A stretch of 52,612 nt of DNA, the filler included, from Jimgerdemannia flammicorona (Eukaryota): the NCBI GenBank assembly GCA_003990765.1. It is 2 parts of 2 records of this genome, joined end to end, with 100 filler letters (N's around TTAATTAATTAA, not from the genome) between each part and the next. Parts side by side here need not be neighbours in the genome. Positions count along the whole stretch, not along the records: positions 1 to 26,257 come from RBNJ01000744.1; 1 more part is not named here. The stretch is one strand, 5' to 3'. The notes under the pieces were generated by a model. The model was not told the origin of the DNA and searched no databases. It saw nothing but the letters and a program-made list of their open reading frames with translations. Position 1 is the first letter of the stretch. The number at the start of each line of letters is the position of its first letter. Shown in pieces: positions 7,231 to 45,100 of this stretch. The position numbers and the translations under genes are program-made.

Positions 7231-8120
7231 TGACTTTAATTTTTTTTTTTTTTTTTTTTTTTTTAATTAGAAGAAACCAGAACCTATATAGGTCAAAACT
7301 CTCTCCTACTTTACTCTCTAAATACTATTCCTCTATTATTCTTAGATTATAGAGAGAACCAGTAGTCTCACTATTTCAGCTATATAAGAGTAGTATTATA
7401 TATATACTCTTATTCTAATAATATATAGACTTAACTTATCTATTTATCAGAGCTAGATTATCAGTTTATTACTATAAGAGCACATTTATTTATTAGATCT
7501 AATAATACTGAGACTGAATAATATAACTTTTCTGATCTTAAACAAAAGCCAGAGATAAAGAAAAAACTCTCTAATTAATCAACAAAAAGTAGAATAGATT
7601 TATAATAAGTGAGTAAAGAACTTATATATAAGACTCTCTCAAAAGGATTAATATACATATGGGCTAAGACTTAAAAAGACTTCAATTCTACTCTCTGAGT
7701 CTATAGATCTTAATGATATTATTATATCAGCTCTTAGTTCTAGTTAGGTACTATCAAATAAAGAAGGTCTCACTTTTTAAGCCTACAGACCTTGATTTTT
7801 TTTTTTTTTTTTTTTTTTTTTATTTAACAGACTCTATGTCCCGCAGAATTTTATTAGAAGGGAACCTAAACTATATAGGCCAAAACCCTCTCCCACCACT
7901 CACCAAGCACTGCCCCCCCATTAACCTAGGCTAGCTATTGTCCAGCAGCTTAACCATGCCAGGTGCAGCAGGGTAAAGAAGCCCGCACCTCATTCTATGT
8001 ATCATGCTCTCCCTACCACCAAGAGAAACCCAGCCATATATCAACGACCGAAAGCGCATGCCCAAGAACCCAACATATACATATACAAGGCCATGCCCGA
8101 GCCGAATAGAATAGCCCCTG

Positions 8121-8523
8121 TATAACATTTTAGCATAGTTTATTCCTTTTCTTTGTCTTTCTTCAATATTCTACAACCTTCTGATACTTTTCAAATGTTT
8201 AGAAATTCTTTCTTAGCACCAAGCATTAACTAGTACTTATTTAGTTAGTCACTGAATGCCCTGAAAACTTGTAGAACTTTATTTGTCATCATTTGTCACC
8301 TTCGCCAAGAACTTTCCTCTTGGCATTTTTCCTTTGATTTCTCAGATCCTTCCGGATCCTTCTTTCAGATCTTATATAAATATCCCCTTTGTTCTCAGGA
8401 ATAAAGCTTAGAATATTTTCTTCTAGAAATCCTTCGAGAATACTTGAATCCTTAGTATCTCTTCGAGCTACTTAGGACCACCAGAATTAGTCGCTTCCTC
8501 ATTTAGAAACTAGAACTGTTACA
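8121..8523 (+). repeat. E1 5' LTR (403 bp)
   Basis: TATAAC...GTTACA; direct repeat of 13755-14157; TATAAATA box followed by AATAAA. Confidence 0.96.
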
Positions 8524-8525
8524 CT

Positions 8526-9626: not shown

Positions 9627-10045
9627 GAAGTTGTACTCAATTTCATGTGAGTCAACCCCAAGGCCCAGACCCCTCAAGCATAGTCAGAAGGAGCTATTGG
9701 TTTAGACATTCAAGCAGTACAACAAGTCACTATTCCAGCACATGAAAGAAGGCTCATCCCAATGGCCTTTCAGTTGAAATCCCCAAGGAACATTATGTAC
9801 AAATTGCACCAAGATCTGGCCTCAGCTTCAAGCACTCATTGGATATTGGTGCTGGAGTCATAGACCCTGACTTCCGAGGTAAAATGCAAGTTCTGCTAGT
9901 CAACCACAAGAACCAGCCATATACCATCAATGAAGGAGATATAATTGCACAGCTCATTCTGGAGCGAGCCACCCTACCAGTCATCAAAGAAGTTATCAAG
10001 CTGTCTTTCACTAAGCGAGATCAGAAAGGCTTTGGCAGCACTGAC
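9627..10045 (+). pseudogene. dut: E1 trimeric dUTPase domain between gag and protease
   Basis: All five motifs: GAIGLDI, IAPRSGL, GVIDPDFRG, IAQLI, RDQKGFGST; stops and one frameshift. Confidence 0.93.
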
Positions 10046-13000: not shown

Positions 13001-13441
13001 TACAACATTGGTAATATGGTTCTACTCAAAGCCAACAACATCAAGGCTCAATCTCAAGTCAACCGTCAGTCAGCCAAATTCCAGCCCAAGTACCTTGGAC
13101 CCTTCAAGATCACCAAGCAAGTCTCTACGTGGTCTTACCGTCTCAACTTGCCAACAACCATGCATATACATCCAGTATTCCATATGTCACAACTCAAGGC
13201 CTGGAACCAGTCACCCCCATACCCTGGCCGAATTCCAACATCATCAGCACCAGTCATAGTTGAAGACCACATCGAGTATGAAGTCGAGAAAATCTTAGAC
13301 AAATGAGTCTGATACCATTGCATAGAATACCTAGTCAAGTGGATGGGTTATCCTAAATATGATGCTACCTGGGAATCTGCCGCCAACCTCAAGAACTCCC
13401 AAGACCTCATCCAAGAGTTCGAGCAAAAAGGAACTCATTGA
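10082..13441 (+). pseudogene. pol: E1 pol: aspartic protease, reverse transcriptase, RNase H, integrase, chromodomain
   Basis: LIDSRA (DSG motif), LRMCIDY, YIDDILIFS, TTDASNFAIGA, HPQTDGQTE, GPFKI, EYEVEKILD...YLVKWMGY...TWE. Confidence 0.95.
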
Positions 13442-13653
13442 CTGCCCATGAGGTTCTCCCCTTAGATAGTAGATGACCTACTGTGCTGATCAGACACATT
13501 ATGCATCAGAGCTCTCTAAGGGATACAGCATCAGAAGCAAGAGATATAGGAGAACCCTATAAATCCTGCAACCAACGAGGTTCGAACCAGTTCTCATCTG
13601 ATCAAGATGATACTTTGGCCCTCGCCTTATACAAGGATGGCCAATCCTTGCCA
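13439..13653 (+). ncRNA. Candidate conserved structured RNA element in the E1 3' UTR
   Basis: Shares invariant blocks and covarying helices with E2 20376-20582 (see findings). Confidence 0.6.
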
Positions 13654-13741
13654 ATGAGTCAGTATATTTAATTTGAAGTTTCTTTTAGTCTTATTGTTTA
13701 TCATATGTAACTTTGAGAATTCAACGAGGATATTGATTCTT

Positions 13742-13754
13742 AAGGAGGGGAAGA
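13742..13754 (+). promoter_or_regulatory. E1 polypurine tract
   Basis: AAGGAGGGGAAGA immediately before the 3' LTR. Confidence 0.9.
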
Positions 13755-14157
13755 TGTAATATTTTAGCATAGTTTATTCCTTTTCTTTGTCTTTCTTCAA
13801 TATTCTACAACCTTCTGGTACTTTCCAAATACTTAGAAATCCTTTCTTGGCACTGAGCATTAACTAGTACTTATTTAGTTAGTCACTGAATGCCCTGGAA
13901 ACTTGTAGAACTTTATTTGTCATCATTTGTCACCTTCACCGAGAACTTTCCTCTTGGCATTTTTTCTTTGATTTCTCAGATCCTTCCAGATTCTTCTTTC
14001 AGATCTTGTATAAATATCCCCTTTGTTCTCAGGAATAAAGCTCAGAATATTTTCTCCCAGAAATCCTTCAAGAACACTTGAATCCTTAGTATCTCTTCGA
14101 GCTACTTAGGACCACCAGAATTAGTCGCTTCCTCATTTAGAAACTAGAACCGTTATA
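13755..14157 (+). repeat. E1 3' LTR (403 bp)
   Basis: TGTAAT...GTTATA; about 24 differences from the 5' LTR by manual count, all transitions. Confidence 0.96.
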
Positions 14158-15990
14158 CCCTGCTACCCCAAAGAGAATGACAGGTAAAGAAAAAACCCTC
14201 ATCAAAGCACAACATGGTGGGTAGGGCCTGGTTCTCCCAGTTGAGATGAGTAAAGGACTTATACGTGAGACAGGAGGAAGCCCCCAATACCCCACTACTC
14301 AAGTCTGTGGGCCTCGATCATGTTGTCATATCAGCTCCCAGTTCTAGTTGAGTGCAGCCAAGATACCTGAAATGAGTAGCCTCGGGCCCCCCAACCCCCC
14401 CTGATGACTGGGGCCTCATCTCGCTATCCGCCAAAAGAAGCCAAGAGTGACACCTACCATCTAACCACACTGCACCAATCAAAAGGCCCCACCGAAGCAG
14501 CACCTGCCCCAGCCCCGATGACTGCCCCCAGCCTGACACCCTACTGGTCCACCATTATTGCCCTTCCTCCTATCTGTAATAGCCATCTCCCCTCCCAACC
14601 TGACAACACCCGAAAAGCAGTCACCTATGTATGCCAGAACCGCACTTGCCAGGAAGCTCGCCAAAGCCAGAGGGCCCCACCACAGGCACCGAAGACCTGC
14701 AGGTAACCTACACTGGGCACTTGATGCCCAAGGTCAGCCGACTCCCTACATAGCCTGAGACACACTGAGACAACTCCTTGTTGGCGACGGCAAAAGGAAG
14801 AAGGTGCCGCACCAAAACGGATACACCTCAGATGCAGCTGAAGGCACCAGAATCCGCGAAAAAGTGGAGGAAGCACCGATCTGATATTGATAAAGGGGTA
14901 ACTCATCACCATTGCCCTCCTCCCACCATGCCCCTGCAGGCACAGCAAACCAACCTGAGGTAGAGGGGGTAATATTAGGGAAAAGGAGACTTGAAAGGTC
15001 ACCTATCAAACCTTGTGACTGGTAAGGTAGTGGAGAAAGGAGCTGCCTACAGACCTTGATCACATTACTATATCAGCTCTTAGTTCTAGTCAGATATAAC
15101 CAGAATACTAATCACTACACTACCCTACTGTCTGTTAGCCAATTAAAAGGCCCTACTAAGATAATGCTCATCCTAATCCTAATAACTCTCTCTAACCTAA
15201 TACTCAATTAGTTTACTGTTATTATTCTTCCTCTTATCTATAATAGCCATCTCTCCTCCCATCCTGACCCTACCTGAAAAAGAATTATCTATATCAGAAC
15301 TATACTTATCAGAAAGCTTGCCAAAGCTCAGAAAGCTCTACTATAAGTACTAATAATCTATAGATAACCTATACTGATACTTGATGTCCAAGGTCAGCCA
15401 AATTCCTATATAGTCTGTAATATATTATAATAATATCTTATTGATGATAATAAAAAGAAGAAGATACTATATCAAAATAGATATATCCTAGATATAGCTA
15501 GAGGTATATATATATCAAAAACTATAAAAAAGTGGAGAAAGTACTAATCTGATACTGATAAAGAGGCAACTCATCACTATTGCCTCTCTCTCACTACTCT
15601 GCAATAGGTATAACAAACCAATCTGAGGTAGAGGAGAAATAAGTATAAAAAAGAAACTCAGAAGATTACTTACCAAAATCTTATAACTAGTATAATAGTA
15701 GAGAAAGAAGTACATACTGATTTTAATTTCTTCATTATTATTACATTCTTTAGAAGAGCTAGTAACTTCTTCTCTTGATTTTTATTTTCTTTCTTTCTAA
15801 GATTTTTTATATCTTCTTCAAATATCTTTATTCTCTTTTAGTATATAATAGATCTTTTAGATATTAATTATATATTGATAATAGTTATCAATATACTTTA
15901 TACAGTATATCTAAATTCTATAAGAATAGATTCTTTAAGAGATATATCTTTAGATAATCTTTTTGTATCAATCTTCTTTACTAATTTATC

Positions 15991-18739: not shown

Positions 18740-19334
18740 TGTCACATAGTGATCACTGAGTCCTTCAAATATACCAGATTCTCTTCAAGGTATATCTCTT
18801 AGACTAACTCAAGTTTGTTATAAGCAAGTTCTTATTAGAGTGCCTTTCCAAGATCTTATAGTCCTCAAACTTCTTATCTTTAAACTGTCTTGTTATCTCT
18901 TAGATTGCTTGCAAGAAAGTATGTGTATTGTACTGAGAGGAACTAAATAGACTAACTTTATTTCAGAGGAAATAAGAGGGGTATTTATATAAAATATAAT
19001 TCAATAGTTACTAATATATAAAGCTAAATATAAATTCCAATAACTAAAATAAAATGCCAGGACAGGAAAAACTGCTGAGTTCCAAGGTCAATACTGATGG
19101 TTGTACAGATTCAGAATACTGGTATAATTCAGTATTACATCAGAATGCCAGTACTGACATTATTCAGTATAACTAAGAGACTTAGAGCAGAATGTTCAGA
19201 ACCATGGGAGCTTCATTCTTATCATTACTGAAGGAAATGAGATCTGCAAATTCATCATTGTCATGTACTTCATATATATCGCATATCTCGCATATATCAT
19301 GCAGGATGATGTCATCACTAATGACATCATCACA
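18740..19334 (-). repeat. E2 3' LTR (inner boundary inferred)
   Basis: 18740-~19080 matches 25917-26257; inner end placed at CATCACA (TGTGATG on the minus strand). Confidence 0.75.
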
Positions 19335-19499
19335 TTTGGCAGCAGGAAAATCGAGAACTCTCCAATCTATGAGGTTCTCTTCTACAAAATAGGGAACAAA
19401 TGTGGGGTCTTGGAGAGGTCTAATCTGAATGCTTGGGCCTTAGAATACTGAGATCAATCCTTACAGGAATTGATCTGGGTTGTCCTGGAGAATGGGATA

Positions 19500-20543
19500 T
19501 CAGAAGTCTTCTACTTCATCACTATTGAGAGTGATAGTGGACTGGGCCTCTGTAGCCACTCTGGCTTCTAGTATATTGATACAGCAGAATAACAGGTCTC
19601 TGAAGTCTGAGACTCTAATATACTCCAATTTGGGGATTGACTATGATGCATGCCTAAAGATCTGATAGATCTTCTTAGCTGTCTTTGTTTTATATATATC
19701 TATGGGAGTGGTATCTTGTAGCTCTTGAGTACTGGTCTATAGGAACTCTCGATAGAGGAGGTTTTCTATTTCATACTCCTGCTACATTTGGAGACATTTG
19801 GTAGCAATGGTGATTCTTGTTTCCATTTTATGGCAGTAGAGAATATAGTAATAAGAGTTACCAGTACCCAGGTTGATACTTGGAGTCCTTCTTGAGTGGG
19901 TCCTCATGGTTCTTCTGATGTCTTGGAATATCCTTTCTTTGACTGAGATGCCTTGATGGTTCCTTGACCTTGAGGTTTGGCAAGCAGTAGGCATTTTGTT
20001 TATGGTAAGTCTTTGAGCTATTTTGGGATTGGTGGGTCTTGTTGGTTGCTGCTACTGCAGTTCCTTGATCCTTCTTTTATATTCCTCAAGATACTCAACT
20101 ATAGTCACAATGACTCACAGTTGGTCACCATTGCTCATCTTATATACTATATGATCTTCTTGTGCTCTGATCTGGTAGCTTGTAAGGAAAGGCTGTCTCC
20201 TGTGCTGATGTCATCATTCTGAGATCACTGTTATATCTTCCTCCTGAATAAGGATCTTCTCAAGTATCTTTATTCATTGGGCCAGTTCTGAAAATTTGCT
20301 GATCCCATAACCTCTGGCAAGGGGTTGAAAAGTAGTGTTTATGGGCTAGCATCTTCTCTATGTATTTTGGTATAATGGTGAAGGGTTGCTCCCTTCATAT
20401 AGAGCAAGGGTCTGATTCTGATCTTGACCAATCAGTTGATAGTTTGAACTCCTCTGGCTTCAAAAGTCTCATGGATGAGTAGTTGCTAGTGCTGTATCCC
20501 TTAGAGAATGGTCCAGACAGATAGTCTGCTGGTCATGGGACAT
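19500..20543 (-). pseudogene. E2 accessory ORF (~348 codons, unknown function) between integrase and 3' LTR
   Basis: One frame from ATG 20543 to TGA 19500 interrupted only by TGA/TAG stops explicable by C->T or G->A; includes track ORF 19782-19994. Confidence 0.6.
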
Positions 20544-20582
20544 ACTGTTATGATTCACAGACTAGAACCTCACAGGTGGTCA
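20376..20582 (-). ncRNA. Second copy of the candidate structured RNA element, just downstream of E2 integrase
   Basis: Homologous to 13439-13653 with compensatory changes. Confidence 0.6.
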
Positions 20583-20589
20583 TTATGTT

Positions 20590-23500
20590 TTGCTTCTCTT
20601 ATATAGGTTCATTGTACTTCTTGAGTCTGTTTCTATATACCATGATAGGCAGTATGGTCTCTGAGATTTTTCTAAGCCAGAAGGTAGTCCTCTTGATATC
20701 TTGTATATAGAAGGGTCCTTCTCATTTGAGCTCCAGTTTTTATGACTATGAGGCTTCTACTATATTTTGATACAGTAGGACCTTTTCTCCAATTCAGATG
20801 GATTCTAGGGTCTTGTGATTCTTTTCTGCATTCTTCTTTATTAGCGCTTGTGACTTGATAATGTAATCTTTAGCCTTCTTCCTGATTTGGTGTAGTCTCT
20901 GGATTTCTGTATCAATCTGTCTCCAAGTTAGGTCTAGGTGGCTGAGGTTCCATCAGAATCTTCTTCTCTGAAGAGCAGTTCCCTTGAAGTAAAGTGTGTG
21001 CTCTGTGACCATATGTCTCATAGGACAGAGAGGGCAGTTGGGAGATAATTATCCCAATTCTCATATATCTCTAAGATCTTTACCAGGATGTTCTTGAGGA
21101 TCTTGTTGGTTCTCTCTATCTGTCCATTTCCTTGAGAGTGGTACACAGTGGTCTTGATGTACTGAATCTTGTATTTCTGATACATTATCTCATAGAATCT
21201 ATTGACAAATTCTATACCATGGTCTGTTGTGATTTACTTTGGTATCTTGTAGTAGTAGATGATTTCTTGGTGCAGGAAGTCAGCTATAGAGAGGACATTG
21301 GCTTCTTGTAATACTTCTGCTTCTATTTATTTGGTAAAGAAGTCTATAATAACTATAATATAGCAGTTTCCTGATAGTGTTACTGGTAGTGGCCCAATGA
21401 TATCTATTGTAATGTGGTAGAAGGAGATAGGCTTAATTCTTGATGACCTGAATGCCTGGTCTTATTGATCTTATTTCTGTTTTTGGTACTTATCACACTC
21501 TTTGACAAATTGGCACAAATCTTCTTCCATCTTGGGCCACTACATGGTTCTTCTTGCCTTATAATATATATTGGTTCCTCCTAGATATCCTTACTCATGT
21601 ACTTCCTTCATTACTTGATACTTCTTATGTTCAGGTATTACTAGCTTTCTTTCTTTTCTGAGTATAGTATTGTCTAGTTTAAACTGTTTCTAAGTCCAGT
21701 TGATGATGGTGATTGTCCAGGGTTTGAGGTGGTTGGGTATCTTCTGCTGCCCAAGATAGCTGATTAATCCATAGTATAGCTCCTTATTCATATTAAATAG
21801 TCTTTATGGGGGTATTTCAGGGTGTTCTTGAGAGTACATCAGTATTAGTGTTGGTTCTTCCTGAGCAGTGCTTGACAGTATAGTCATACTCTTACAGTCT
21901 GTAAATTTATCTGGTATATATTTCTATGGAGTTCAGAGTGTGGAATAGCCAGGTAAGAGCAGAATGGTCTGTTTGAATAGTGAAGTATTTTCTGGCTAGG
22001 TAGTAGTGGAACTTGTCTACTGCCCAAACTACTGCTAAGCATTCGAGCTTGCATGATTCATAGTTCTGTTCTGCTCTGTGAGTATCTTGGCTTGCATAGG
22101 AGATGACATATTCATGTCCATCTTTCTTCTGAGCTAGGACTGCTCCAAGTCCTATAGCACTTGCATCTGTCTGCAGGATGAATTCTAGATTCCAATCTGG
22201 TCTTCTGAGGATAGATGCTTGGGTCAACCTGGTCTTGAGTTCATTAAAGGTTTCTTGGTATTCTTTGGTCCATTCAAATTTGGTTTCCTTCTTCAGTAGC
22301 TTGTAGATAGGTGCTGCAATATTGGAATATCCTTTGATGAATCTTCTGTAGTAGCTGGCCAGTCCAAGGAAGGCATGGACTTCTGTGGTCATTCTGGGTC
22401 TTGGGTAGGCTACAACAGCCTCAATCTTCATGGAGTCTGTGTGGATTCTGGTCTGGTTGATGAGGTATCCTAGATAGGTGATTTCTTGAGCTGCAAACTT
22501 ACATTTCTTGGGCTTAATGTAAAGGCTATACTCCTTGAGCTTCTTAAGGGCTAGCTGTATATAATTGATATATTCCCATGCAGTATTGCTAAAGATGATT
22601 ATATTATCAACATAAACAAAGAGCCATTTTCCAATCTCATTGCTGAAGACTCTGTTCATCATTTGCTGGAAACTTACTGGGGCATTGCATATTCCAAATG
22701 GCATTTGCAGGTAGATATAGGTGGCATCAGGTGTGATGAAGGCTGATTTCTCACTGGCATCTTGAGTAAGATCAATCTGATAGAAGTCTGAGAACAGATC
22801 CAGAGTGGTGTAGTATTTGGCTTCACTTCCAAGGGTGGTAAGGATTTCTTGAATATTTGGTAAGACTGCCTATCCTTCTTAGTAATAGCATTGAGCTTCC
22901 TGTAGTCAATGCAGAGTCTTGGTGCAAACTCTCCAGGCTTGCTTTCTTTCTTTGGGGCAAGAATAATGAGTGAAGCCCAGGGACTGATAGCTTGCTTGAT
23001 GATTCCAGCTTCTTCCATTTCCTTGAGTTCTGCTCACAGCCATTCTCTGTAAGTAGGTGGTATGGGTCTGGCTTTCTGGTAGATGGGCTTGATATCACCA
23101 GTGTCAACTTTATAATAGTACTTAGGTTCTTGATTGTAGATATCCCTGAAGTTCATAACAAGTACTCCTTCATTCTGGTGCAGGATCTTGAGAAGTTGTT
23201 CCTCTAGGGGAAAGTTTTCTCCAATAGTATATATGTGCTTATTCTGATCCTTGTCTTTCTTGTATTCAAGTTCGGTAATCTTAGTGGCAGTATAGACTCC
23301 TCTTCCAGTAGATCCAAAGCCTTGTTCTCCTCTCTTGATCTTGATGAGTTCAATGGTTTTAGTGATCTTGGATTTCTTGATTTCATGGATCAGCATCTGG
23401 CCAATCCTGTCATGCTTCTTGATTTCGAATAGGGTGGTGGGGTTGTGATTCCTGACTATGAGGAAGATCTTACTAGTGTAATTGGGGTCAATTACTCCTC

Positions 23501-25860
23501 CTTCAACTGAGATTTCACTTTTGGCCAAACTGCTTCTGATATTGATAATTCTAGTATAGTTTTGTGGTAACTTGACTTCAATTCCAGTGCCAAGTAGGGT
23601 GGTGATCTGTGGTTCAAGGATAGCATCTTGAATGCTGGCAAGGCCCATTCCTATGGCTCCTTCAGTCTTGTATTCTGGGATCTTGGCTTTGGGGTGAAAC
23701 TTCTTCACCTTGAGGGTGATTTCTGATTCTTGTTCCTCCTTATCATTACTGTCAGCTTAAAGCTCTGGGGGCTGGTCATCTTCTTTGATTTTCTTTTTTG
23801 CTTCAGCAGCTTCTTGCTTGTATTTCTGTTGGTGGATTTTCCTGACTTCACTGATACAGGACCAGCAGTTATTCAGGTGTTCAGAGCAGTACATCCTAGT
23901 ACCATAGGGGTATCTTCCTTGAGGGACATAGCCATCAATAATCTTATTATACTACTGCTCATCTGTGAGCTTGGGTGTCTTGTTCTTGTTCTTGTTCACT
24001 GAGTACATGAAGACCTCTGTGTTCTCTTCATCACTTTTCTCCATATCTGGTAGAACTCCTTTGTAGACATTGATAGAGACTCATACCTTTCTTTCTCTAT
24101 AGTTGATCTGCATCTTCTGGGCATTGAGGTCAATGATGGTCTTGGCCTTGTAAAGTCATTGGTTTCCAATGAGAATGTTATAGTTAGTGGTGCTTATAAC
24201 AATCACATCTACTGAGATGGTAACTCCTCCTATCTTGATGGGAACTTCTCAGATTTTGTTAAGGGGGATAGCTCATATACCATCTACTGTGACATAGACC
24301 ATTTTGGTGGACTCTTCAATATTCCAACCTAGGTGATCAATTGCCTTCTTGCTTATAAGACATCCTCCAGCACAGTATCAATGATGGCATCAAAGATATA
24401 GTCTTCAATCTGATATGGGGTATAGGCTGATGTCTTGCACTGGTCTTCAGATTCTTTACCTGAGTTTTCGGATTCTTCCTGTACATTGTGAGCTTCTATA
24501 ATCTTGTACTCTTGATTCTTAGCAGTAGTTGCAAGTCCTACTCTCAACTGCTGTCTGAAGGCAGAAACTTTGGCTAGCTGTCTAAAAGTAGCATTGATCT
24601 TCTGTTCCTTGAGGTCCTTGTAGATATCATACTGGTGGACCTTGGTCTTATGCAGCTTCTGTTTCTTCTTACTTTCACTTTCTCCTAAGACTGGAGTAGT
24701 GTCTTCAATAATTTGGCAGACAGCTTCATCTAACTCCATGTCTTGATCAATCTCCTCAAGTTGAGTCTTGCTTTGAATAGTGATAGCTGGGGTCTTCTTT
24801 GGTCTTCCCACTGGCTTGCTGTTACTCTTCTTGTCATAGGGCTTGGACTGGGTTCTGTTATCTTCAGTAGTAGGGTAGAATTCAAACTCCTCATAGTATT
24901 CTTCATCATCAGTGTTGCCAATCTCCTCGATGACTACTGCATTGATTTGTTCTCTAGTTCTGCTGACATTGCTTGGTTGGGCTTTGCATCTTATTTCAGT
25001 TATACAATTCTTTGCATAGTGGCCTTCTTCTCTATATCTGAAGTATGTGATATTGCATTCTTCTGTAGCAACTGCAAATCTCTGCACTGGTCTCCTGTTG
25101 GCACTTCAGACTTCTCTAACAACATCACCAAGGTGTGCTGTCATCTTGGCAAACTGCTTGGTAAGTTCCTCCACTGAGTTAGCTTTGGCTACCTTGGGGG
25201 TAGGTGGGGTTGGTTGTCTGTTTACAACTGTAGCAGATATGATACTAGTTAGCTTTGATGGCTCTATCTTAATACTAGTTATTTTCTCCATTGAGTATTT
25301 AGCAGAGTGTCTGGTAGTCCAATATCTCTGTGCAAAGACCACTTTCTGATCAAGGGTCAGTATAGCTAGGGTAGACCAGATTGCTAAGACAATTTCAGGG
25401 TGAACTCCTTTGAGAAAGGTTGAATCTGCTATTTGTTCCTTGAGGGCATCATTATAGTCAGCCAAGATAATCTGGTGACAGATTTGAGTATAGAATGAGT
25501 TGGGATCTTCACTAAGTCTCTGGCAGATAGTGTTGAGTTGATCCTTGAGAGCTTGCTTGATCTCTTTGGTATAGTATGTTGTTCTGAGGAAGGCATTCAT
25601 ATTGGCAAGTTTGGCTGCACCATTATCAGCAATAGTAGCTGCATTGAACTTGTCTCTAGTAGGTCCTCTGAGGCTGAGTGGTAGAAGGGCCAATTGTGCA
25701 TTCACACTATAGTGGTGAATTATTCAAAGTCTTCAATGAAGGTCAGGATTAACTCTTCTGTAGTATATCCATAGAATATAGGGGGTGTATTTTCATCTTG
25801 TCTTGAATTCTTGCAGAGGTGACTCTTGTAGTCAGGGTAGTTGTTATAGGGGTTGTTCAT
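20590..25860 (-). pseudogene. pol: E2 gag-pol polyprotein (gag, degenerate Zn knuckle, PR, dUTPase, RT, RNase H, IN with GPF/SH3 tail)
   Basis: IIDT(G)AGGCLISK, RLCIDYRKLN, MPFGICNAP, YVDNIIIFS, LQTDASAIGLGAVL, EGPFYI...VYRNRLKKY. Confidence 0.93.
23295..23708 (-). pseudogene. dut: E2 dUTPase domain between protease and RT
   Basis: GAIGMGLAS, IRSSLA, GGVIDPNYT, RIGQML, RGEQGFGSTG within ORF 23034-23708. Confidence 0.93.
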
Positions 25861-25916: not shown

Positions 25917-26257
25917 TGTCACATAGTAGTTGCTGAGTCCTTCAAATATGCCAGATTTCTTCAAGGTGTATCTCTTAGACTAACTCAAGTTTGTTATAAG
26001 CAAGTTCTTATTGGAGTGCCTTCCCAAGGTCTTATAGTCCTCAAACTTCTTATCTTTAAACTGTCTTGTTATCTCTTAGATTGCTTGCAAGGAAGTGTGT
26101 GTATTATACTAAGAGAAACTGAATGGACTGACTTTATTTCAGAGGAAATAAGAGGGATATTTATACAAAATATAATTCAATGATTGCTAAGATATAAAGC
26201 TAAATATAAATTCCAATAACTAAAATAAAATGCCAGAACAGGAAAAACTGCTAAGTT
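25917..26257 (-). repeat. E2 5' LTR (partial, runs into the N-gap)
   Basis: Matches 18740-19080; followed on the minus strand by ACT + TAGTGTCCATTGG (decayed TGG-PBS). Confidence 0.9.
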
Positions 26258-26357
26258 NNNNNNNNNNNNNNNNNNNNNNNNNNNNNNNNNNNNNNNNNNN
26301 NTTAATTAATTAANNNNNNNNNNNNNNNNNNNNNNNNNNNNNNNNNNNNNNNNNNNN
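26258..26357. other. Assembly gap with artificial all-frame-stop linker
   Basis: N-run containing TTAATTAATTAA at 26302-26313. Confidence 0.95.
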
Positions 26358-29499: not shown

Positions 29500-32400
29500 T
29501 CAATGACAATACCTAATATTTAGCTTATATAGATGATATTACTACTGTACTCTGCTTCATATTTATCATAAGGTAACTTCTTTGCCAATATAAAAGAGAT
29601 ATCCTATCATGGATCAGCAATCATCCAGATCTCTAACTCAATTAATATCATATTTACTAGATAGTCATATGTTATTAATATTATTACTTCTGCTTAATCT
29701 ACTAAGAGTGAGTATATAGTATACTATATTCTAAATATATCTGAAAATTCTTTTAATTGTTGACTAATGTAAATTGTTATAGTAAGAGGAGTATAGTATC
29801 ACCTTATTTATAGTATATGATATATCAGATCACATTTCTAGTATCTGATATATAATAGAACTGACTGCTTACTAATAAGGAAATTATTATTAATAGATAT
29901 AATATAATCTAACTCAGTTATAGTGTCAGGCTTTCTTAACTTTATAAAAGTCATTAAAGTGCTAATAAGCTTGTATTTATTTATATTGAAATATTTAAGA
30001 ATTATCTGTAAATATAATACTTGCAAGAAGTATATAGTATATATATATATAGTGAATATCTCCAAAAGAAAAAAATATATCACTTATATTTATTATCTTG
30101 AATTGTTGGTATAAAGCTTCTTTAACTCTGTAATATATATAAGTCTGTTCTTACTAGCAATGATTATAATATCATCTACTTATATATCAATAAATATTAT
30201 ATCACTATCATCAAAATGTCAGATATATATATAATCATCTACTTTGTAAAATATGAATCTATTGTCAAGATTATACTTATCAATTCTTTAATTCCACTTG
30301 ATTGATACTGTATAGTCTCTTATATAATCTGTATATAAGGTCACCATTCTGGCTATAATATAGTTTATATTCTTTAGGTTAATAGATATATAGTTTAGAA
30401 TTAATATTACTATTTAGAAAGGCTATCATAATATCTATTTGATGGATTTTTAGATTATATAGCATGCTAATTATAAGCAGTATTCTTAGTGAGGTAAGCT
30501 TAAATACTAGAGAGAATATTTCATCATAGTCTATCATATAATCTTATGAATAACTCTGGGCTATAAAATGTATTTTTTTTTTTTTTTTAACAGACTCAAA
30601 GTCCCACAGATTTTTATTGAAAGGGAACCTAAACTATATAGGTCAAAACCCTCCCCCACCACCCATCAAGCACTGCTCCCCCATTAATCTAGGCTAGCTA
30701 TTGTCCAGCAGCTCGACCATGCCAGGCACGGTAGGGCCTATGGTGACCTATACCTCATTCTGTACACCATGCTCTTCCTACCACCAGGGGGAACCCAGCT
30801 ATATGCCAACAACTGAAAGTACATGCCCAAGACCCCAATGTATGTATAAGGCCATGTCTGAGCTGAATAGAATAGCCCCTGTCACCCTAAGAAGAATAAC
30901 AGGCAAAGAAAAAAACTTTCATCAAAGTATATCACAGTAGATAGGGCCTGGTTCTCCTAGTTGAGGTGAGTAAAGGAATTATATATGAGGTGGGAGGAGA
31001 CCCCCAATACCCCACTACTCAAGCCTGCAAGCCTTGATCACATTGCCATATCAGCTCCCAGTTCTAGTTAAGTGTAGCCAAGATATCTAAAATAGATAGT
31101 CTCAGGCCCCCTGACCCCCTCCAATGACCAGGGCCCAATCTTCTGAATTGTCAAAAGAAGCCAAGAGTGACACCTACCACCTAACCACTCTACACCAATC
31201 AAAAGGCCCCATCAAAGTAGTACCCACCCCAGCCCTGATGACCACCCCCAGCCTGGTACTCTACTGGTTCACTGTAATCACCCTTCCTTCTATCTGTAAT
31301 GGCCATCCCCCCTCCCATTCTGACAATACCTGAAAAACAGTCACCTACACCAGAACTGTACTCACTGAGAAGCTCATCTAAGCCAGAGGGCCCCACTACA
31401 GATACTGAGGACTTGTAGGTAATCTATACTGGGCACTTGACACCCAAGGTCAGCTGACTCCCTATGTAACCCATGACATACCAAGACAGTACCTTGTTGG
31501 TGATAGCAAAAGGAAAAAGACACTGCACCAAAACAGATGTACTCCAGATATAGCCAAAGCCATCAGAAACTGTGAAAAAGTAGAGAAGACACCTATTGGA
31601 CCCCAATAAAGGGGTAACTTATCACCATTGCCTCCCTCCCACTACCCTACAATAGGTACAGCAAACCAACATAAGGTAGAGGGGGTAATAATTGTGGAAA
31701 GTGGACTCAGAAGGTTGCCTACCAAACTATTATGACTGATAAGATAGCAGAGAAAGGAGTATGGACTATGAAATGTATGTTATACTACTCTATGTTTCTA
31801 TTAGTATTATATTTTATCTTATATACTCACTTGGATCTAATTGCTTAACAGTTTGACAGAAGAAGTACTAGATCTCTTATATTATTCTTAACAAGTAAAT
31901 CTTATTTATCATCTATAGCTTATTTCTATATCCTGCTATCTAGACTGATTACAGCTTTATTTTATATATGTATATAACTTATTATATATTGTAATATATA
32001 TATATTTATATACTTTGACATATGTAGCTTATACAGTTCTTATATTAAGAGATTTTTGCCATATCTCAATAATTTCTTAAATCAGAACAGATTTCATAGT
32101 AAATATTAGAATAATTTTGTATTTCTTTACTCTTGATAGATCCCTCATTGCTAGAGAATTCACTATTATCTTTATCTTTAATCTCTATTATTCCAGACTT
32201 AGCAAACTCTGGCTCATATAATAGTTGAAAATAATTTTGATTTACTACTAAAGAGATATATAAAAAATAGTTGTATTAACTTCTATATTTATACTAGCTG
32301 AGAAATAGAGATAAAGGTTCTGACTGATATTTCTATATAAATCTCTTTAGTTTTATCTTTTTCTCAAATATTGCAAAGCTGATAGAAATTACTACTATAT

Positions 32401-36470: not shown

Positions 36471-39400
36471 TCCAAGTCACTGAAATTGTATATTACTCTC
36501 AGAACAAATTTAGAAATCATCTGCCAGATTATGAAGCTGAGTCAAACCAAAGTTACAGATCATGAAGCTGAGTTAATATGAAGTTACAGAATATAAGATT
36601 TATGAAAATGAGATCTTACCAATCAGAACTAAAAGCATATCTATCAAACATACAGCATATCAAAATGGAGAACTACAATAAATCAAACCAAATAACCACA
36701 ACTCTCAAATTCATATATACCCAGCCATGACCACTGATGTCTACAATTATATCTGCAATAATATTTAGAATGCTATTCTCAACTGAGCCACAGTACTCTT
36801 ACTTCTCATGAATATCTATAGTTTAGTACTTCTTTATTTTATAAAAGCTTGATGGAATGTCCTGAACATATTTGGCAAGACCTACTGAATCTGATAAATC
36901 TCAAGCTACTACTGGATTGACTAGATATGGTTAATCATCACTATAATATAGATATTACTGAGATGTCACAATATCAGAAACTCATTGTTTACAAATACTG
37001 AGAACTTTTCTATAAGTATAGTATCTTATTCTCTATCTTTAAGTCACTACTGCTAAAATGGTTGCCATACTGACCTATGGTCAAATCAATGACATAGTGC
37101 TAGAACTCAACCATAAGTATATTAAGTATACTCAAACTACAGACCCTTTCTATATACTGATAACTATATCCTGCAAATACCTCAAGTTGGATATGTTATA
37201 AAAGATGCCTATGATATAATTCAGTTTAATAATAATGAAGTAGAAGACAATAACCTCTCTAATATCAACATGACCTCTAGTCAAAAATTCCTGCCAGCCC
37301 TGATCACTCTGCCAACCTTATCAATGAACTTACAATAGTTTATCACTACTTACAAGACCTATTAAGATAATGACTACTGGTATGAGTATCAACCTACATT
37401 TCCACCTAACTACATCAGCTACAATGAAGAGACTGGAGAATACAATCTATATCTCCAGATAACTCTCGAGATAGAATCAACAACTCCACCTCCTGAGTAT
37501 GAGTGAAATAAATAACAGTCACTAGTATACTACAACTCTGTAACATATTGTACTATAACCTACTGAAGGTATGCTGACAGTGAATCTGATAAAAGCAAAA
37601 ATAATACACTCCTTCTCTGCCCACCAATACCATACTCAGCATATGAGACAAATAAGATCATTCCATGAGACAGTGATATGGTTCCAATATATTACTATAT
37701 GAATGATCAGAGAGATATAATCTAAGAACTGCTCTTTTTAGATAACTACTTCATCATAAATGATATCATTAATAGTGACCTTATTGAAGAATATTCAAAT
37801 AGTATCTAAACTTATAAATAGTATAGCAGTCATTAGTATAGTTAGATTAGTCTTATACTATTTAACTATATACTAATTCAGCAAGTAGTCAATCTTTTGA
37901 CATATCAGTTCACACTTATACTATATGATTGTATTCTGACTCATCAAAGTACTAAAGTGCTATACCTATATTTAGTATAGTTCAGATAGCCCCCTATTAG
38001 TATAAATACCTACTCTCTCAGAGCTTAAAAATACAGACAAAAATATAGATGTAAGTAAGTAAAGAATACTTCTCCATACAAATATTTCTTCGTACACTAC
38101 TTTTAGCCAATAGTAATATCATGAATGGCAAATAAACCTATTTAATAACCCACAAACTACTCTTAAGTAAACTCATACTATATGAGATCTCACTTCTAAC
38201 TAGATCTCAAAATTTTCTAATTGTGTATTATTTATACAGTATATCAATTTAACTAAACTGGTCTTAGTTTCTTAAACTTTCTGAAAACCCTTCTAGAACT
38301 ATATAATGGTATTCTAATAAGGTACTCTATTACAACTTGGTAGTAGTAGTTTATAATCCAATTCTGCTTTAAGATGCTTCCTCACTTAGCTATAACCTAC
38401 AATAGAAATTTCTATAAGTTAATATTAAGCTCAATTACTGAACTGAAATTTATTCTGAATCATTTGACAAACTGAAGTAAATTGAATCTGACTTATAAAG
38501 ACAATTAGACCTTCATGTCTGTAATAAGTGGGACAAGCTTTACATAACCAAAGAAGTACTCCAATTAAATCAGCAGATAGGTGAAACCCTATTCACTGAA
38601 CTCTTTACTCTATACTCTACAAGTTAAGATGAAGAAGGTCTTATAGAAGCCTTCATTAATAATCTTAATAAGAGTTTTATAAGCTCTACCAACTCAAGTA
38701 ACCTAGGACAACTAGTAGCTATATTCCTAGTTTTGTTCCTCATAAAGCCCAAGCCTCCAAAGCTAAGTAGCTCAACTCTATTGACTATCATTACACTAGA
38801 ACCAAGACTGCCCTATACTATTGTTTCAAGAATTACAAGATCTACCATATTCTTAAAGAAGAAGCCAGAGAAACTCTTTGTTAACAACTTGACCCTGAGC
38901 CAGAAGTAGGCCTAGCTACAATCTTATCTAAACTTAAAGTAGAACCAGAACTAGCTTTTGATTTAAGCCCATCTGAAATCTGTTATATAACTGATATAAT
39001 CTACATTGATGCTGAATAAACCCAATTACATAAAGACCAAAGTGAAGAGAAGGAGGAGTATCTCACTAAATTTGATATCAGATATACTACTGAAGAAGAC
39101 AAATCTTCTTTAAGACAAAACATACCTATAGAATAACAGACAGTTATCTATCAAGCTCTTATACCAGATCTATAACAGTCACTACAACAACTTATACAGA
39201 CTCAAAGAATACCATCATACTCTATACTAGTATCTCAAGTTATATTAGTATCCCTACTATAAGTAGTTCAACTACCTTTAGTAAATAATATAGCAAACTA
39301 GTAAATCCTAGACCTCATGTTCCAGATAGCTATAATGGTAACAACCATTACTGTCCTAGCTGAATGGACCTAACCAACAAAGAGTCTGAGTTTACTTACC

Positions 39401-40339
39401 TTTAATAGTACTATATAAGAAGTCCAAAACTTCATTAGAGAGTAGATACTAACTTCAAAATCAATCAATAGACCAATGAGTGAGTTGCTAACTACCTCTC
39501 AACAAACAACCAAAACCACACTATCAAACAACTTATTGCTACTATCATGGCTTATGTCAATTGAATTATTACATTCTTCTGAGAACCCACTGAAGAATAG
39601 TAGTAAACTCTTTCTGAATTAACCCCTCATATAGGACTTCCAATCTGTTGTTATTGTCCAAAATGCAGCAAATGATGCCTCTGGATATAGAGACCACCCT
39701 ACAGCCCCTGGGCTCAAACAACTCATGAGTGCCTAATATTGTAGTGAAACTCTGATTGCCTAATCTTAAGTAAAACTCTGCAATCTCAAATTGGATATAT
39801 ATAGCAAAGAGGAGTTCAAAACCTTCTATACAAAACTTGAGTCTCTCTTGAATACTATTGGCCTAGAATATATTACCAATGATGAAGTACAGAATAGTAT
39901 AAGAGCAGACTATTTATTCAATATACTACCAGAATGGCCCATAAGAAAAATCTGAGAACAAGGATTCCTAATTGGTTGTGATTACTAACAATAGTGTCTG
40001 GCTAGAATCAAGACCATGGTTAAGTAAATCCTAACAGCTGGACCAATTCTGCCTTAAAAACAATTCAATAACAAGAAAAAATCTTAGACCAAGAATGAAG
40101 AACCCAAGTATAAAGTATTAAGCTCCCTCTATATTCACCTCTTAAATACCCCAAAATTCTGAACCCACTCAGCTGAGTATCTTTAAGAAACTCACTGAAG
40201 GAGAAAGAAATAAACTCTGAAGAAGTAGAGTATGCTTCTATTGCTGAAAGATAGAACATATGGCTAGTATCTACCCTAACTAAAAATACTATACAAAAAT
40301 ATGAGCTACTGTTAATACACTGCATCATCTCAATAATTT

Positions 40340-40760
40340 GACTACTAAGATACTAGACTTCATTAAGTTAAGGATAACAGCTATGGCCCCAATCAAAGAA
40401 AGCCAAAAAGCAGTAAGATATGACCTATATATAGCTGAAGAAGCTATAGTTTTTAATCAAGAAGCCAAGGAAGTCTATATAAGAATCAATATTCAAATTC
40501 CTGAAGAATATATTGGAAGGATATGCTGTTACAGCAGCCTAGCATTAAAAGGACTCTCAGTAGAAGGAGGAGTCATTGATGAAGATTATATAGATGAAAT
40601 TATCATTCTTATCTAAATCTATAATCAGACACTATTCAAGATTCCTATTTGTTATTATATTACTCAGATTCTACTTGAGAAAATTGAATCAATTCTGATA
40701 GTTAAGGAAGTTCCTGAACTACTATCTACTATCCAAGGATTCAAAGGATTTGGCTTATCA
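40340..40760 (+). pseudogene. dut: E3 dUTPase domain between gag and protease
   Basis: AVRYDLY, YSSLALKGLSVEGGVIDEDY, ITQILL, GFKGFG. Confidence 0.88.
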
Positions 40761-40979
40761 AAAAAAGCCCCAGCTCAACCTACTGTAAATAAGAAGGAAT
40801 AGTTTTAAAGGAAAATTGAAGATGGATTTGTACTAAGTAGTCAATACCCCCATGGTATTGAAATGTACTCTTCCCAAATAATTGATGATTGCTTCTCTTA
40901 TATCAATGAACTGATCCATCAGAGAGCCAATAGAAGAAAATCTTCTATAACTGAGATTACTATCATTAGATTGGACAAA

Positions 40980-41340
40980 CTGCTCACCCTCCAAGCTTTT
41001 ATTAATTGGGCTCCTATCAAGATTGTAATAGACAGTAGTGCATCTAGCAATTTCATTAATGAGAAAACAGTCAATATACTTAAAGTCCTGACCTCTCTGG
41101 TACAACAAACTCAAGCAGTTTCTATAGCTTATAGAACCTCATATCTCATTAGCAAGGAAGTCCACAACTTATCCTTTAGAATTATTGATACTGAGTACAT
41201 TTTACTCTCTAAATCATATTACTTTCTGACAATGAGATCATCCTTGAGACCCTATGATTAAAATAAGAGAACTCTATAATTGATTGGGTAAACTATTTTC
41301 TAATCATTAAGAAAGGATGCTACAATTTCAAACTGCAAAG
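40980..41340 (+). pseudogene. E3 aspartic protease
   Basis: INWAPIKIVIDSSASSNFI (decayed DSGA). Confidence 0.8.
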
Positions 41341-41360
41341 CAAAAACGACTCACTCAGTT

Positions 41361-42503
41361 TTTTTTTTTTTAACAGACTTGAAGTCCTGCAGATTTTTAT
41401 TAAAAGAGAACCTAGACTATATGCCAAAACCCTCCCCCACCACTTATCAAGCACCATACCCCCATTAAATCTAGGCTAGCTTTATCTAACATCTCAACCA
41501 TACTAGACACAGTAGGGCAAAATGCCTATATCTCATTCTGTACACTATGCTCTTTCTATTACTAGAGAGTAAACAACTATATATCTATAACTGAAGACAT
41601 ATGTCTGAAAACCCAATATATATATAAGACTATATATGAGTTAATTTACATAGTCCCTGCTATCTCAAGAAGAGTGGTAAAGAAAAACTCTTCTCAAAGC
41701 ACAGAATAGTAGATAGGACCTAGTTCTCTCTGATGAGGTAAATAGAGAACTTATACATGAGATGAGAGAAGACCTCCAATACCCCATTACTCAAACCTGC
41801 AGGCCTTAATTATATTGCCATATCAGCTCCTAGTTCCAGTTAAGTACAGCCAAGATATCTAATCTAGATAGCCTCAGGCCCCCCAACTACCTCCAATAAC
41901 TGGGGCCTAACTCTATATATTATGAAAAGTAGCTATGAGTGACACATACTATCTAACCACCCCATACCAATCAGAAAGTTCCACCAATACAGCACCTGCT
42001 CCAGCCCTAATAACAGTCTCTAACTTAGCACCCCACTGGTTTACCATAATCACCCTTCCTCTTATCTGTAATAGCTATCTCACCTATGCCAGCATCATAC
42101 TCACTGGGAAGCTTGTTAAAGCCCAGAGAGCCCCACTATAGATACTGAGAACCTGTAGACAATCTATACTAATACTTGACACCCAAGGTTGACTGATATT
42201 CTATATAGTCTGTGATATATTGAGATAGTATCTAGTTGATAACAGCAAAAGGAAAAAGATGCCAACATAAACAGATATGTATACTCCAGATGTAGTCAAA
42301 GATACCAGAAACTGTGAAAAAGTGAAGAAAGCACTGATCCAATACTAATAAAGAGGTACCTCAATACCATTGCCTCTTTTTCACTATACCCTTGTAGGCA
42401 CAGCAAACCAACCTAAGGTAGAGAAGGTAAAAGTAGAGGAAAGGGGACTTGGAAGGTCGCTCACCAACTCTGTAACTGGTATGGTAGTAGAGAAAAGAGT
42501 GGA
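41361..42503 (-). mobile_element. Fourth copy of the ~1.2-kb non-autonomous retroposon, inserted in E3 pol
   Basis: Poly(T) ~41359-41371; TSD GACTCACTCAGTT (41348-41360) / GACCCACTCAGTT (42504-42516). Confidence 0.9.
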
Positions 42504-44639: not shown

Positions 44640-45100
44640 CTATAACCTACAGCCAAATCAATGATATAATACAATAACTCAATCTGAAATATATTTAGTA
44701 TGCTCAAACTATAGATAGACTCTTCCTGTACTCAGATAACTATATTCTACAAATGTCTTAAGTAGGATATACTATGAAGGATATCTATAATATAATCTCG
44801 TTTGACAATAATAAAGCAGAAGACAATAATCTCTCTGATACTGAAATGACTTTCAGCTAAGGATCTCTGCCAACCCTGATTACTCTGCCAATCTTATCAA
44901 TGAACTTACAATAGTTTATAACTATTATGAGAACTATTGGGATAATGACCACTTGCATGAATACTAATCTATATTGATACCCAACTACTTTAACTATAAT
45001 GAAGAAATAGGAGAATACAACCTATATCTTCAAACAATCCTTGAGATAGAACTAATGATTTCACCTTCAGAATATGAGTAATATTAAGGACAACTGCTAT
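44640..45100 (+). mobile_element. Third fragment of the E3 accessory-ORF region
   Basis: Aligns to ~37070-37520 (TY.QINDI...DNYILQ...GEYNLYLQ). Confidence 0.75.

Follow-up and report, generated by a model that had tools for sequence, protein, structure and literature searches.

A probable structured RNA module downstream of pol shared by two Ty3/Gypsy retrotransposons of Jimgerdemannia flammicorona

We analysed a 52,612-nucleotide stretch (52.6 kb, hereafter referred to as the window) of the Jimgerdemannia flammicorona assembly GCA_003990765.1, which carries two Ty3/Gypsy retrotransposons with long terminal repeats (LTRs), E1 and E2, and found that a segment lying just past pol in both of them is probably a real, functional and undescribed structured RNA module. 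E1 lies on the + strand between LTRs at 8119-8524 and 13755-14158 (94% alike), with a tRNA-type primer site downstream of the 5' LTR and a polypurine tract (PPT) at 13742-13754. Its pol is a single frame with 31 in-frame stops, in the order dUTPase-protease (PR)-reverse transcriptase (RT)-RNase H (RH)-integrase (IN)-SH3-chromodomain. E2 lies on the - strand, with LTR pieces at 18740-19081 and 25917-26257 and the domain order PR-dUTPase-RT-RH-IN. The contigs of the window are joined at 26258-26357 by 44 N, TTAATTAATTAA and a further 44 N, and the 5' LTR of E2 is cut at this contig end.

A previous interpretation made from the DNA alone (the sequence-only reading) had described E1 as a chromovirus and E2 as a non-chromoviral element with a different domain order, and both the domain orders and the presence of chromodomain PF00385 in E1 only bear this out. 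The chromodomain terminates the E1 integrase (E = 8.7e-15), and none was found in E2 when the three sense frames lying upstream of the segment were searched; read by eye, the lists of the 120 best relatives show PF00385 in nearly every entry for E1 and in no entry for E2. The pols of E1 and E2 are collinear, with RT identity of 36-41%. The best relatives of the E1 pol are chromodomain-bearing proteins from metagenome contigs (at most 54% identical), and those of the E2 pol are PR-dUTPase-RT proteins (about 50%), the named ones at 44-45% including Rhizophagus and others from animals and plants; because these best relatives differ, the elements represent two lineages. Named pol relatives are 40-50% identical, with algae, plants, animals and Rhizophagus among them. 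The dUTPase sits on opposite sides of the protease (E1 9746-10040, E2 about 23300-23700), and a variable dUTPase position in fungal Ty3 elements has already been published (accessible part of PMC2864245). One earlier statement, that the LTRs of E1 and E2 show no similarity, needs amending: they share a single 45-nt block (14003-14045 and 26171-26128; 82% identity) around TATAAATA...AATAAAG in the TATA/AATAAA region, which likely represents promoter and poly(A) signals.

The segment at E1 13439-13653 (+) is homologous to E2 20582-20376 (-), as had been proposed, and all of the shared blocks quoted were located. Its global alignment scored 74, compared with 10.9 +/- 5.0 in 500 dinucleotide shuffles (maximum 31; z = 12.8) and a maximum of 22 among 500 real E2 windows. 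Under a stricter score, local alignment of E1 with E2 gave z values of 7.6 (segment), 5.4 (RT core), 2.3-2.8 (LTRs) and 1.9 (IN C-terminus), with values near 0 for the spacer (-0.4), leader (0.3) and gag (-0.1). The segment is the highest-scoring DNA similarity between the two elements and the sole non-coding part conserved at all. Identity is about 50% in a gap-poor alignment and does not exceed that of RT core DNA (55-58%), so the segment is conserved like the best-kept coding DNA and not better; it is set apart by its pattern of blocks and by its alignment score rather than by overall identity.

The blocks occur in the same order in both elements. Block 1 (TGACTGCCCATGAGGTTCT in E1, TGACCACCTGTGAGGTTCT in E2) has 15 of 19 bases identical and is followed by an identical 18-mer, TCTCTAAGGGATACAGCA, which with up to three mismatches is present at just two places in the window (shuffle mean 0.09; at least two matches in 0 of 100 shuffles). 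The GTTC block (GGTTCGAACC in E1, AGTTCAAACT in E2), TCAAGAT, CCCT(C/T)GC and CCA come next. E1 and E2 differ by 1 nt in the spacing of block 1 and the 18-mer, one 9-nt indel lies between the 18-mer and the GTTC block, and the 75 nt from the GTTC block to CCA contain no indel. TCAAGAT is also present in both leaders and was considered there as a special signal; this idea was dropped, the word occurring 9 and 7 times in the E1 and E2 sense strands, respectively. At its 5' end the E1 segment begins, as described before, at the pol stop, a TGA (13439-13441) that ends the chromodomain frame. A metagenome contig (192 nt, 34 differences, 82% alike) spans the pol end and the segment of another E2-family copy, and the junction of pol and segment is therefore a family trait rather than an accident of this locus. 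The features are as follows.

13433-13659, + strand: whole E1 domain, closing helix to closing helix; contains the span 13439-13653 of the sequence-only reading.
13433-13440, + strand: 5' strand of E1 closing helix P1, ACTCATTG; last pol codons plus T-G of TGA, paired with 13652-13659 in the minimum-energy fold.
13652-13659, + strand: 3' strand of E1 P1, CAATGAGT; begins inside the conserved CCA (13651-13653).
13439-13457, + strand: E1 block 1; TGAGG at 13449-13453 can pair with CCTCG at 13620-13624 or with the 5' half of the 18-mer.
13487-13494, + strand: 5' strand of the E1 long-range helix, TGATCAGA; pairs with TCTGATCA at 13597-13604, with one compensatory pair relative to E2.
13513-13530, + strand: E1 invariant 18-mer, by sequence identity with E2.
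13545-13561, + strand: E1 small hairpin TATAGG/CCTATA, within the part of the segment where the 9-nt indel falls.
13579-13588, + strand: E1 10-nt palindrome GGTTCGAACC, read from the sequence.
13594-13610, + strand: E1 hairpin TCATCT/AGATGA around TCAAGAT; competes with the long-range helix.
13632-13650, + strand: E1 terminal hairpin CAAGGAT-GGCCA-ATCCTTG; 5 of 7 pairs compensatory.
13501-13671, + strand: E1 open frame of 56 codons, ATG to TAA; basis of a rival coding interpretation.
13721-13754, + strand: E1 chromovirus module, comprising hairpin TCAACG-AGGA-TATTGA, TTCTT and PPT AAGGAGGGGAAGA (13742-13754); the 3' LTR starts at 13755.
20371-20587, - strand: whole E2 domain, from folds and alignment.
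20581-20586, - strand: 5' strand of E2 P1, ATAATG, inside TAATGA (20585-20580); pairs with CATTAT at 20377-20372.
20490-20507, - strand: E2 invariant 18-mer (read 20507 to 20490), by sequence identity with E1.
20529-20535, - strand: 5' strand of the E2 long-range helix, TGACCAG; pairs with TTGGTCA at 20431-20425.
20379-20397, - strand: E2 terminal hairpin TGAAGGG-AGCAA-CCCTTCA; compensatory relative to E1.
20236-20245, - strand: likely E2 PPT AGGAGGAAGA, inferred, at a distance of 130 nt past the segment; the contig end truncates the 5' LTR.

Two helices of this domain, the terminal hairpin and the closing helix P1, covary beyond chance. The terminal hairpin was part of the sequence-only reading and is confirmed as a 7-bp stem with a 5-nt loop in which 5 of the 7 pairs are compensatory. 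P1, which had not been noticed before, pairs the region of the pol stop with the 3' "CCA" region: ACTCATTG with CAATGAGT in E1, and ATAATG with CATTAT in identical alignment columns in E2. Three P1 pairs are changed on both sides between the two elements, two of them by transversions. In both copies C-A of CCA pairs with T-G of the stop codon (columns 12-229 and 13-228), which explains why both TGA and CCA are kept. The terminal hairpin ends one base before the 3' strand of P1, and the minimum-energy folds computed with flanks contain both helices in both copies; in other E2-family copies, position 20371 reads G on the E2 strand and adds a C-G pair with 20587.

These helices are kept in the same alignment columns, as 7 bp with five double changes and 6 bp with three. 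In 1000 column shuffles, a 7-bp helix with five double changes appeared 0 times, a 6-bp helix with three appeared 14 times and two such helices appeared 0 times, and five RT control windows yielded at most 5 bp with 1 double change. Counted over the segment model, 19 pairs have 97.4% of their cells paired and 8 are changed on both sides, compared with 0-1 double changes in six controls with partners slid by 1-3 columns; a count as high as the observed one arose in 3 of 500 shuffles. Transversions on both sides account for 3 of the 8 double changes, and within families transitions are about ten-fold commoner than transversions (632 versus 64 places in soil-metagenome run X1). Since four of the five hairpin changes are transition pairs, one-sided decay was also checked: neither P1 nor the hairpin has any, except for a single C-A cell that is repaired in other copies. 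The consensus fold of the sense strand gave z = -6.28, compared with -1.35, +0.54, +0.35 and +0.98 for four coding (RT/RH) control alignments from the same elements, and E1 alone folds better than its shuffles (z = -3.07).

The sequence-only reading had claimed covariation for six helices in all. Covariation is significant for the terminal hairpin, and likewise for P1, but four of the other proposed helices are short, invariant, register-shifted or mutually exclusive. The hairpins TCATC/GATGA and CTGAT/ATCAG both exist, but their register relative to the conserved TCAAGAT is shifted by one base. The long-range, pseudoknot-like pairing holds (TGATCAG/CTGATCA in E1, TGACCAG/TTGGTCA in E2), with 8 and 7 bp and one double change; it overlaps the preceding helix, its double change rests on an alignment anchored by hand, and position 13494 is G in other copies, giving G-U. 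At the TATAGG/CCTATA position the hairpins of E1 and E2 are equally distant from the GTTC block but not of one size, that of E1 having 6 bp and a 5-nt loop and that of E2 having 4 bp and a 4-nt loop. The pairing between the two ends of the segment is present as 5 bp with one G-C to G-U change but no double change; TGAGG of block 1 has two possible partners, CCTYG close to the 3' end and the 5' half of the 18-mer, and both pairings are kept in both copies, the changes between E1 and E2 being of the G-U type alone. The 10-nt palindrome is perfect in E1 and its flanks are G..C versus A..T, as described, but E2 is self-complementary at only 8 of the 10 positions. G-U pairs in these weaker helices fit the sense strand only, as they would be A-C mismatches on the other, and weakly favour it.

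The layout of the pol 3' end indicates where the segment stands relative to related elements. In 8 of 34 related chromovirus-like loci (L023, L027, L038, L041, L042, L044, L051 and L056), a perfect hairpin NNNNCG-(A/G)GGA-CGNNNN starts 2-17 nt after the pol stop and is followed, after 5-8 nt, by a PPT like AAGGAGGGG and then by the LTR start TGT; no published description of this hairpin turned up in the accessible portions of the literature searched. E1 has the same hairpin-PPT module, very like those of L023 and L027 in sequence, with a hairpin (13721-13736) whose 3' arm departs from the perfect stem at a CG/TA step. Whereas the canonical hairpin starts within 2-17 nt of the stop, that of E1 starts 282 nt after it, the gap being filled by the segment and about 65 AT-rich nt, so that, compared with the canonical layout, the segment is inserted DNA, an added module. 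It lies between the last open reading frame (ORF) and the 3' LTR in E1 (stop 13439, PPT 13742, LTR 13755), and likewise in E2 if the inferred PPT is right. The sequence between segment and PPT (88 nt in E1, 130 nt in E2) is unconserved between the elements.

No third copy of the segment was found in the window by BLASTN, nhmmer or a covariance model. The seed searches with nhmmer and BLASTN that had been suggested as a route to a deep alignment were run over the window and other Ty3/Gypsy loci; they returned the two known copies only and gave no deep alignment. The other loci came from a search with pol alignment A2, which recovered 79 loci in prokaryote genome bins (eukaryote contigs misbinned) and 2 viral loci. 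BLASTN and nhmmer found nothing better than E = 1.9 for the segment in the 79 loci, and covariance model R1, run over all 81 loci and the window, recovered the two known copies only (next best E = 0.36). Three of the other Ty3/Gypsy loci carry dUTPase, and none of the three includes the pol 3' end. Viral contigs contained 0 relatives of the E1 RT. A scan with the 18-mer returned 15 metagenome-contig loci, none matching beyond 18-28 nt, and one viral match on a contig already among them; all were rejected as chance matches.

The segment also stands outside the RNA families of Rfam 15, in agreement with the view that it is undescribed: a scan up to E = 10 gave no family-level match, the best scores being 12-17 bits (E = 3.8-9) against gathering scores of 40-75, and none of these sub-threshold matches was a ribozyme or retroelement family; the models scanned also covered tRNA, 5S, 7SL and U6. 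A U6-like appearance of GATACAG...GGCCC...CAAGGATG was rejected, with no Rfam U6 match. Several of the functions first suggested are not supported by these data. For a tRNA mimic, ARAGORN predicted 0 genes in the whole window, and C-A of CCA is paired with T-G of the stop, so that CCA is not a free end; the RNA also runs on for 88-130 nt past the segment to the PPT, so CCA is not 3'-terminal. A known ribozyme class found no match among the Rfam families scanned (hammerhead, HDV-like, twister and others), and an internal ribosome entry site (IRES) is not supported in E1, where just 88 nt and the PPT follow the segment. What is left of the proposed cis-acting RNA is a conserved, folded and probably non-coding module common to two Ty3/Gypsy lineages.

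Taken together, we consider it fairly probable that the segment is a selected RNA structure, and we hold with moderate confidence that it folds into an RNA domain, about 225 nt long and acting in cis, within the untranslated 3' portion of the full-length retrotransposon RNA. Several results weigh against this interpretation. As the comparison comprises two sequences, the evidence from covariation amounts to 8 pairs in 2 helices, and 4 of the 6 helices originally proposed are short, invariant, register-shifted, ambiguous or mutually exclusive. A nested P1-P2-P3 model, when imposed on the RNA, lies 15.7 kcal/mol (E1) and 6.4 kcal/mol (E2) above the respective minimum-energy folds. E2 alone folds no better than its shuffles (z = -0.40; 65 of 200 shuffles at least as good), and the antisense consensus fold scores nearly as well as the sense one (z = -5.44). 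The 3' two-thirds of the segment keeps a reading frame with a weak codon-like pattern (p = 0.013). Moreover, the distribution of the segment may be narrow, given its absence from the 81 other Ty3/Gypsy loci.

If the segment is such a domain, the module may have been acquired a single time and then moved between co-resident families by recombination, or it may have been retained from a shared ancestor, and it would be held by selection on the RNA fold. Its most likely job would be the post-transcriptional handling of the intronless genomic RNA, namely nuclear export, expression or stability; we put this role forward tentatively and by analogy, because the position between the last ORF and the 3' LTR matches that of MusD MTE, IAP RTE and the retroviral CTE (accessible parts of PMC4588558 and PMC12786077). 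According to the same sources, those elements consist of several stem-loops over a few hundred nt, with long-range contacts, and act in cis on unspliced full-length RNA. By comparison, the segment has two helices with covariation and one long-range helix with a single double change, shows no sequence or model similarity to them (Rfam to E = 10), is shorter than the ~400-nt MTE, is anchored on the stop codon and belongs to a host that is not an animal. A second possible model is the Rous sarcoma virus RNA stability element, a structured stretch that starts directly downstream of a stop codon, ahead of a long 3' UTR, and is proposed to protect the RNA against nonsense-mediated decay. That element follows gag whereas the segment follows pol, and the Rfam scan gave no match linking the two. 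Ty3, a member of the same superfamily, has functional RNA in its short 3' UTR near the PPT (accessible part of PMC11381356). Cassandra retrotransposons, which carry cellular 5S RNA according to a title cited in PMC12786077, provide a precedent for an LTR element with an added structured-RNA module, but theirs is a recognisable host RNA in the LTR and the segment matches no known RNA family.

The position of P1 also suggests how such a domain might work. The segment is closed by a helix of the last pol codons and the stop U-G with C-A of CCA and the bases that follow, and its unpaired conserved bases could be a protein-binding site. Since a terminating ribosome must open P1, the fold could tell translated from untranslated RNA. 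It is a long shot, in our opinion, that the segment represents a new class of RNA element, taken up as a module and exchanged between unrelated Ty3/Gypsy lineages of one host, with the stop-codon helix as a translation-coupled switch. In that scheme, untranslated genomic RNA would keep the fold and be exported, stabilised or packaged via a protein reading the 18-mer, and translated RNA would lose the fold.

A packaging or dimerisation signal, in which Gag/NC would bind the domain and the 10-nt palindrome would be the kissing or dimer initiation site, appears unlikely. Palindromes act as kissing or dimer sites in retroviruses and Ty elements, and the evidence for structure is the same as for the reading we favour. 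The palindrome is perfect in E1 and kept at 8 of 10 positions at the same place in E2, with the flanks G..C versus A..T; however, chance alone would give about 0.2 palindromes of 10 nt per 215 nt (an estimate), and this one overlaps the alternative helix CGAGG/CCTCG. Ty3 needs both UTRs for localisation and packaging, and palindromes have been screened as dimer sites, but in Ty1, Ty3 and HIV-1 the known packaging and dimer sites are located at the 5' end (accessible part of PMC11381356).

It is also distinctly unlikely that the 3' two-thirds of the segment encodes a small protein of 56-61 residues (E1 13501-13671, E2 20543-20358), possibly overlapping an RNA structure, in which case conservation there would be due in part to the protein. 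From the 18-mer onwards both copies keep the frame, with a single 9-nt indel and none over the final 75 nt, and both frames begin at ATG and stop exactly 5 codons past CCA. The last 33 codons comprise 4 identical, 9 synonymous and 20 non-synonymous ones, compared with 3 and 1 synonymous in the other two frames, and the differences fall 17/10/20 by codon position, although the permutation P value over these 33 codons (p = 0.013) precedes correction for three frames. The most conserved 18 nt are without any synonymous change, the codons of the terminal hairpin share no residue yet keep pairing, and block 1 is in different frames in E1 and E2. Relative to pol, the frame is -1 in E1 and +1 in E2, and in view of these different offsets the idea of a pol extension by frameshift was dropped. 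The E2 frame contains two stops no more than 5 codons apart, whereas E1 is open for 56 codons, but both elements are decayed, as the 31 stops in the E1 pol frame attest, and the E2 stops are therefore not decisive. Searches for homologues gave no word-sharing candidate of 35-112 residues, 0 matches for a two-sequence profile among 1.84 billion representative proteins (E <= 0.001) and no Pfam family (E <= 10); the pols of both families are themselves absent from the protein collection above 54% identity, so close copies would be invisible there. The figures and supplements of PMC2864245, to judge by its accessible part, list fungal elements with an 'additional ORF' that could bear on this alternative.

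Two further alternatives seem to us highly unlikely. The segment might aid reverse transcription as the 3' part of a primer-binding site (PBS) that is bipartite, or in strand transfer, with GGTTCGAACC, which we take to resemble a tRNA T arm, annealing the tRNA. A 5'-3' bipartite PBS whose 3' part is at the other RNA end is described for Ty3 (accessible part of PMC11381356). The 5' PBS differs between E1 (TGGTAGCAG...) and other E2-family copies (TGGTGCCC...), yet the conserved blocks are the same; furthermore, 88-130 unconserved nt separate segment and PPT, and no leader-segment complementarity of at least 8 nt is common to both elements (exact search; 1 match in E1, 0 in E2). A role at the DNA level or on the antisense strand, as a protein-binding inverted repeat, antisense promoter or antisense transcript, carries equally little conviction. 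The antisense fold is almost as good because the helices are symmetric, and E1 contains several palindromes (TGATCA twice, TTCGAA), but binding sites need no compensatory changes across 200 nt or within a 7-bp stem, and the G-U pairs of the weaker helices turn into A-C mismatches on the other strand.

Finally, a miniature inverted-repeat transposable element or short interspersed element that landed in both elements, or a recently swapped piece drifting without function, is scarcely credible: the inverted ends (ACTCATTG/CAATGAGT), a presumably B-box-like GGTTCGAACC and the status of the segment as an extra module relative to the canonical chromovirus layout would suit it, but the segment occupies the same site just past the pol stop codons in both elements, shows no target-site duplication that could be read at its ends, has no other copy in the window by any of the three search methods and has ends that differ between copies by matched changes, unlike repeat families, while a recent swap would leave identity above the observed ~50%.

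Beyond the two elements, the window contains a third LTR-like structure (37141-44924), with repeats at 37141-38411 and 42691-44065 that are 62-80% alike and each end in ...ACA ACT TGGTAGYAGYAG, resembling a primer site. It has a dUTPase-like stretch (40485-40766) and no RT match to E1, and may be a tandem or non-autonomous element. Another repeat, directly downstream of the E1 3' LTR (14190-15072), recurs at 30573-31725 and 41525-42467 (71-88% alike). As the last of these copies precedes the LTR-like repeat at 42691, E1 seems to lie inside or beside another element of this repeat family. Two soil-metagenome runs, X1 and X2, hold parts of the stretch (word shares 0.10 and 0.05) in contigs of 150-270 nt, and no RNA data set is among the sequencing runs listed as holding such parts. 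Between 13200 and 20800, the window differs from the X1 and X2 copies almost exclusively by transitions (the 632 transition versus 64 transversion places given above for X1), and A or T often stands in the window at places where every other copy has G or C, which fits deamination-type decay; among the 40 listed of 950 window-versus-metagenome differences, 3 are in the two segments. Many metagenome contigs end at 19048/19049 and at 19358, and other E2-family copies therefore differ over about 310 nt (19049-19358) of a presumed long LTR.

Structured cis-acting RNAs for export, stability and packaging are well studied in retroviruses and mouse elements. For Ty3/Gypsy elements outside yeast Ty3 and animals, no such RNA was found described in the accessible portions of the literature searched. 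The practical value of the segment at present is as a seed for a family search, for which alignment A4, model R1 and the coordinates given here are suited, and the helix anchored on the stop codon offers a simple and testable design. If the proposed RNA domain is real, it would mean that non-coding functional parts are traded among co-resident retrotransposons with different domain orders, primer sites and LTRs and with or without a chromodomain, and that their RNA is constrained by some host-specific step.

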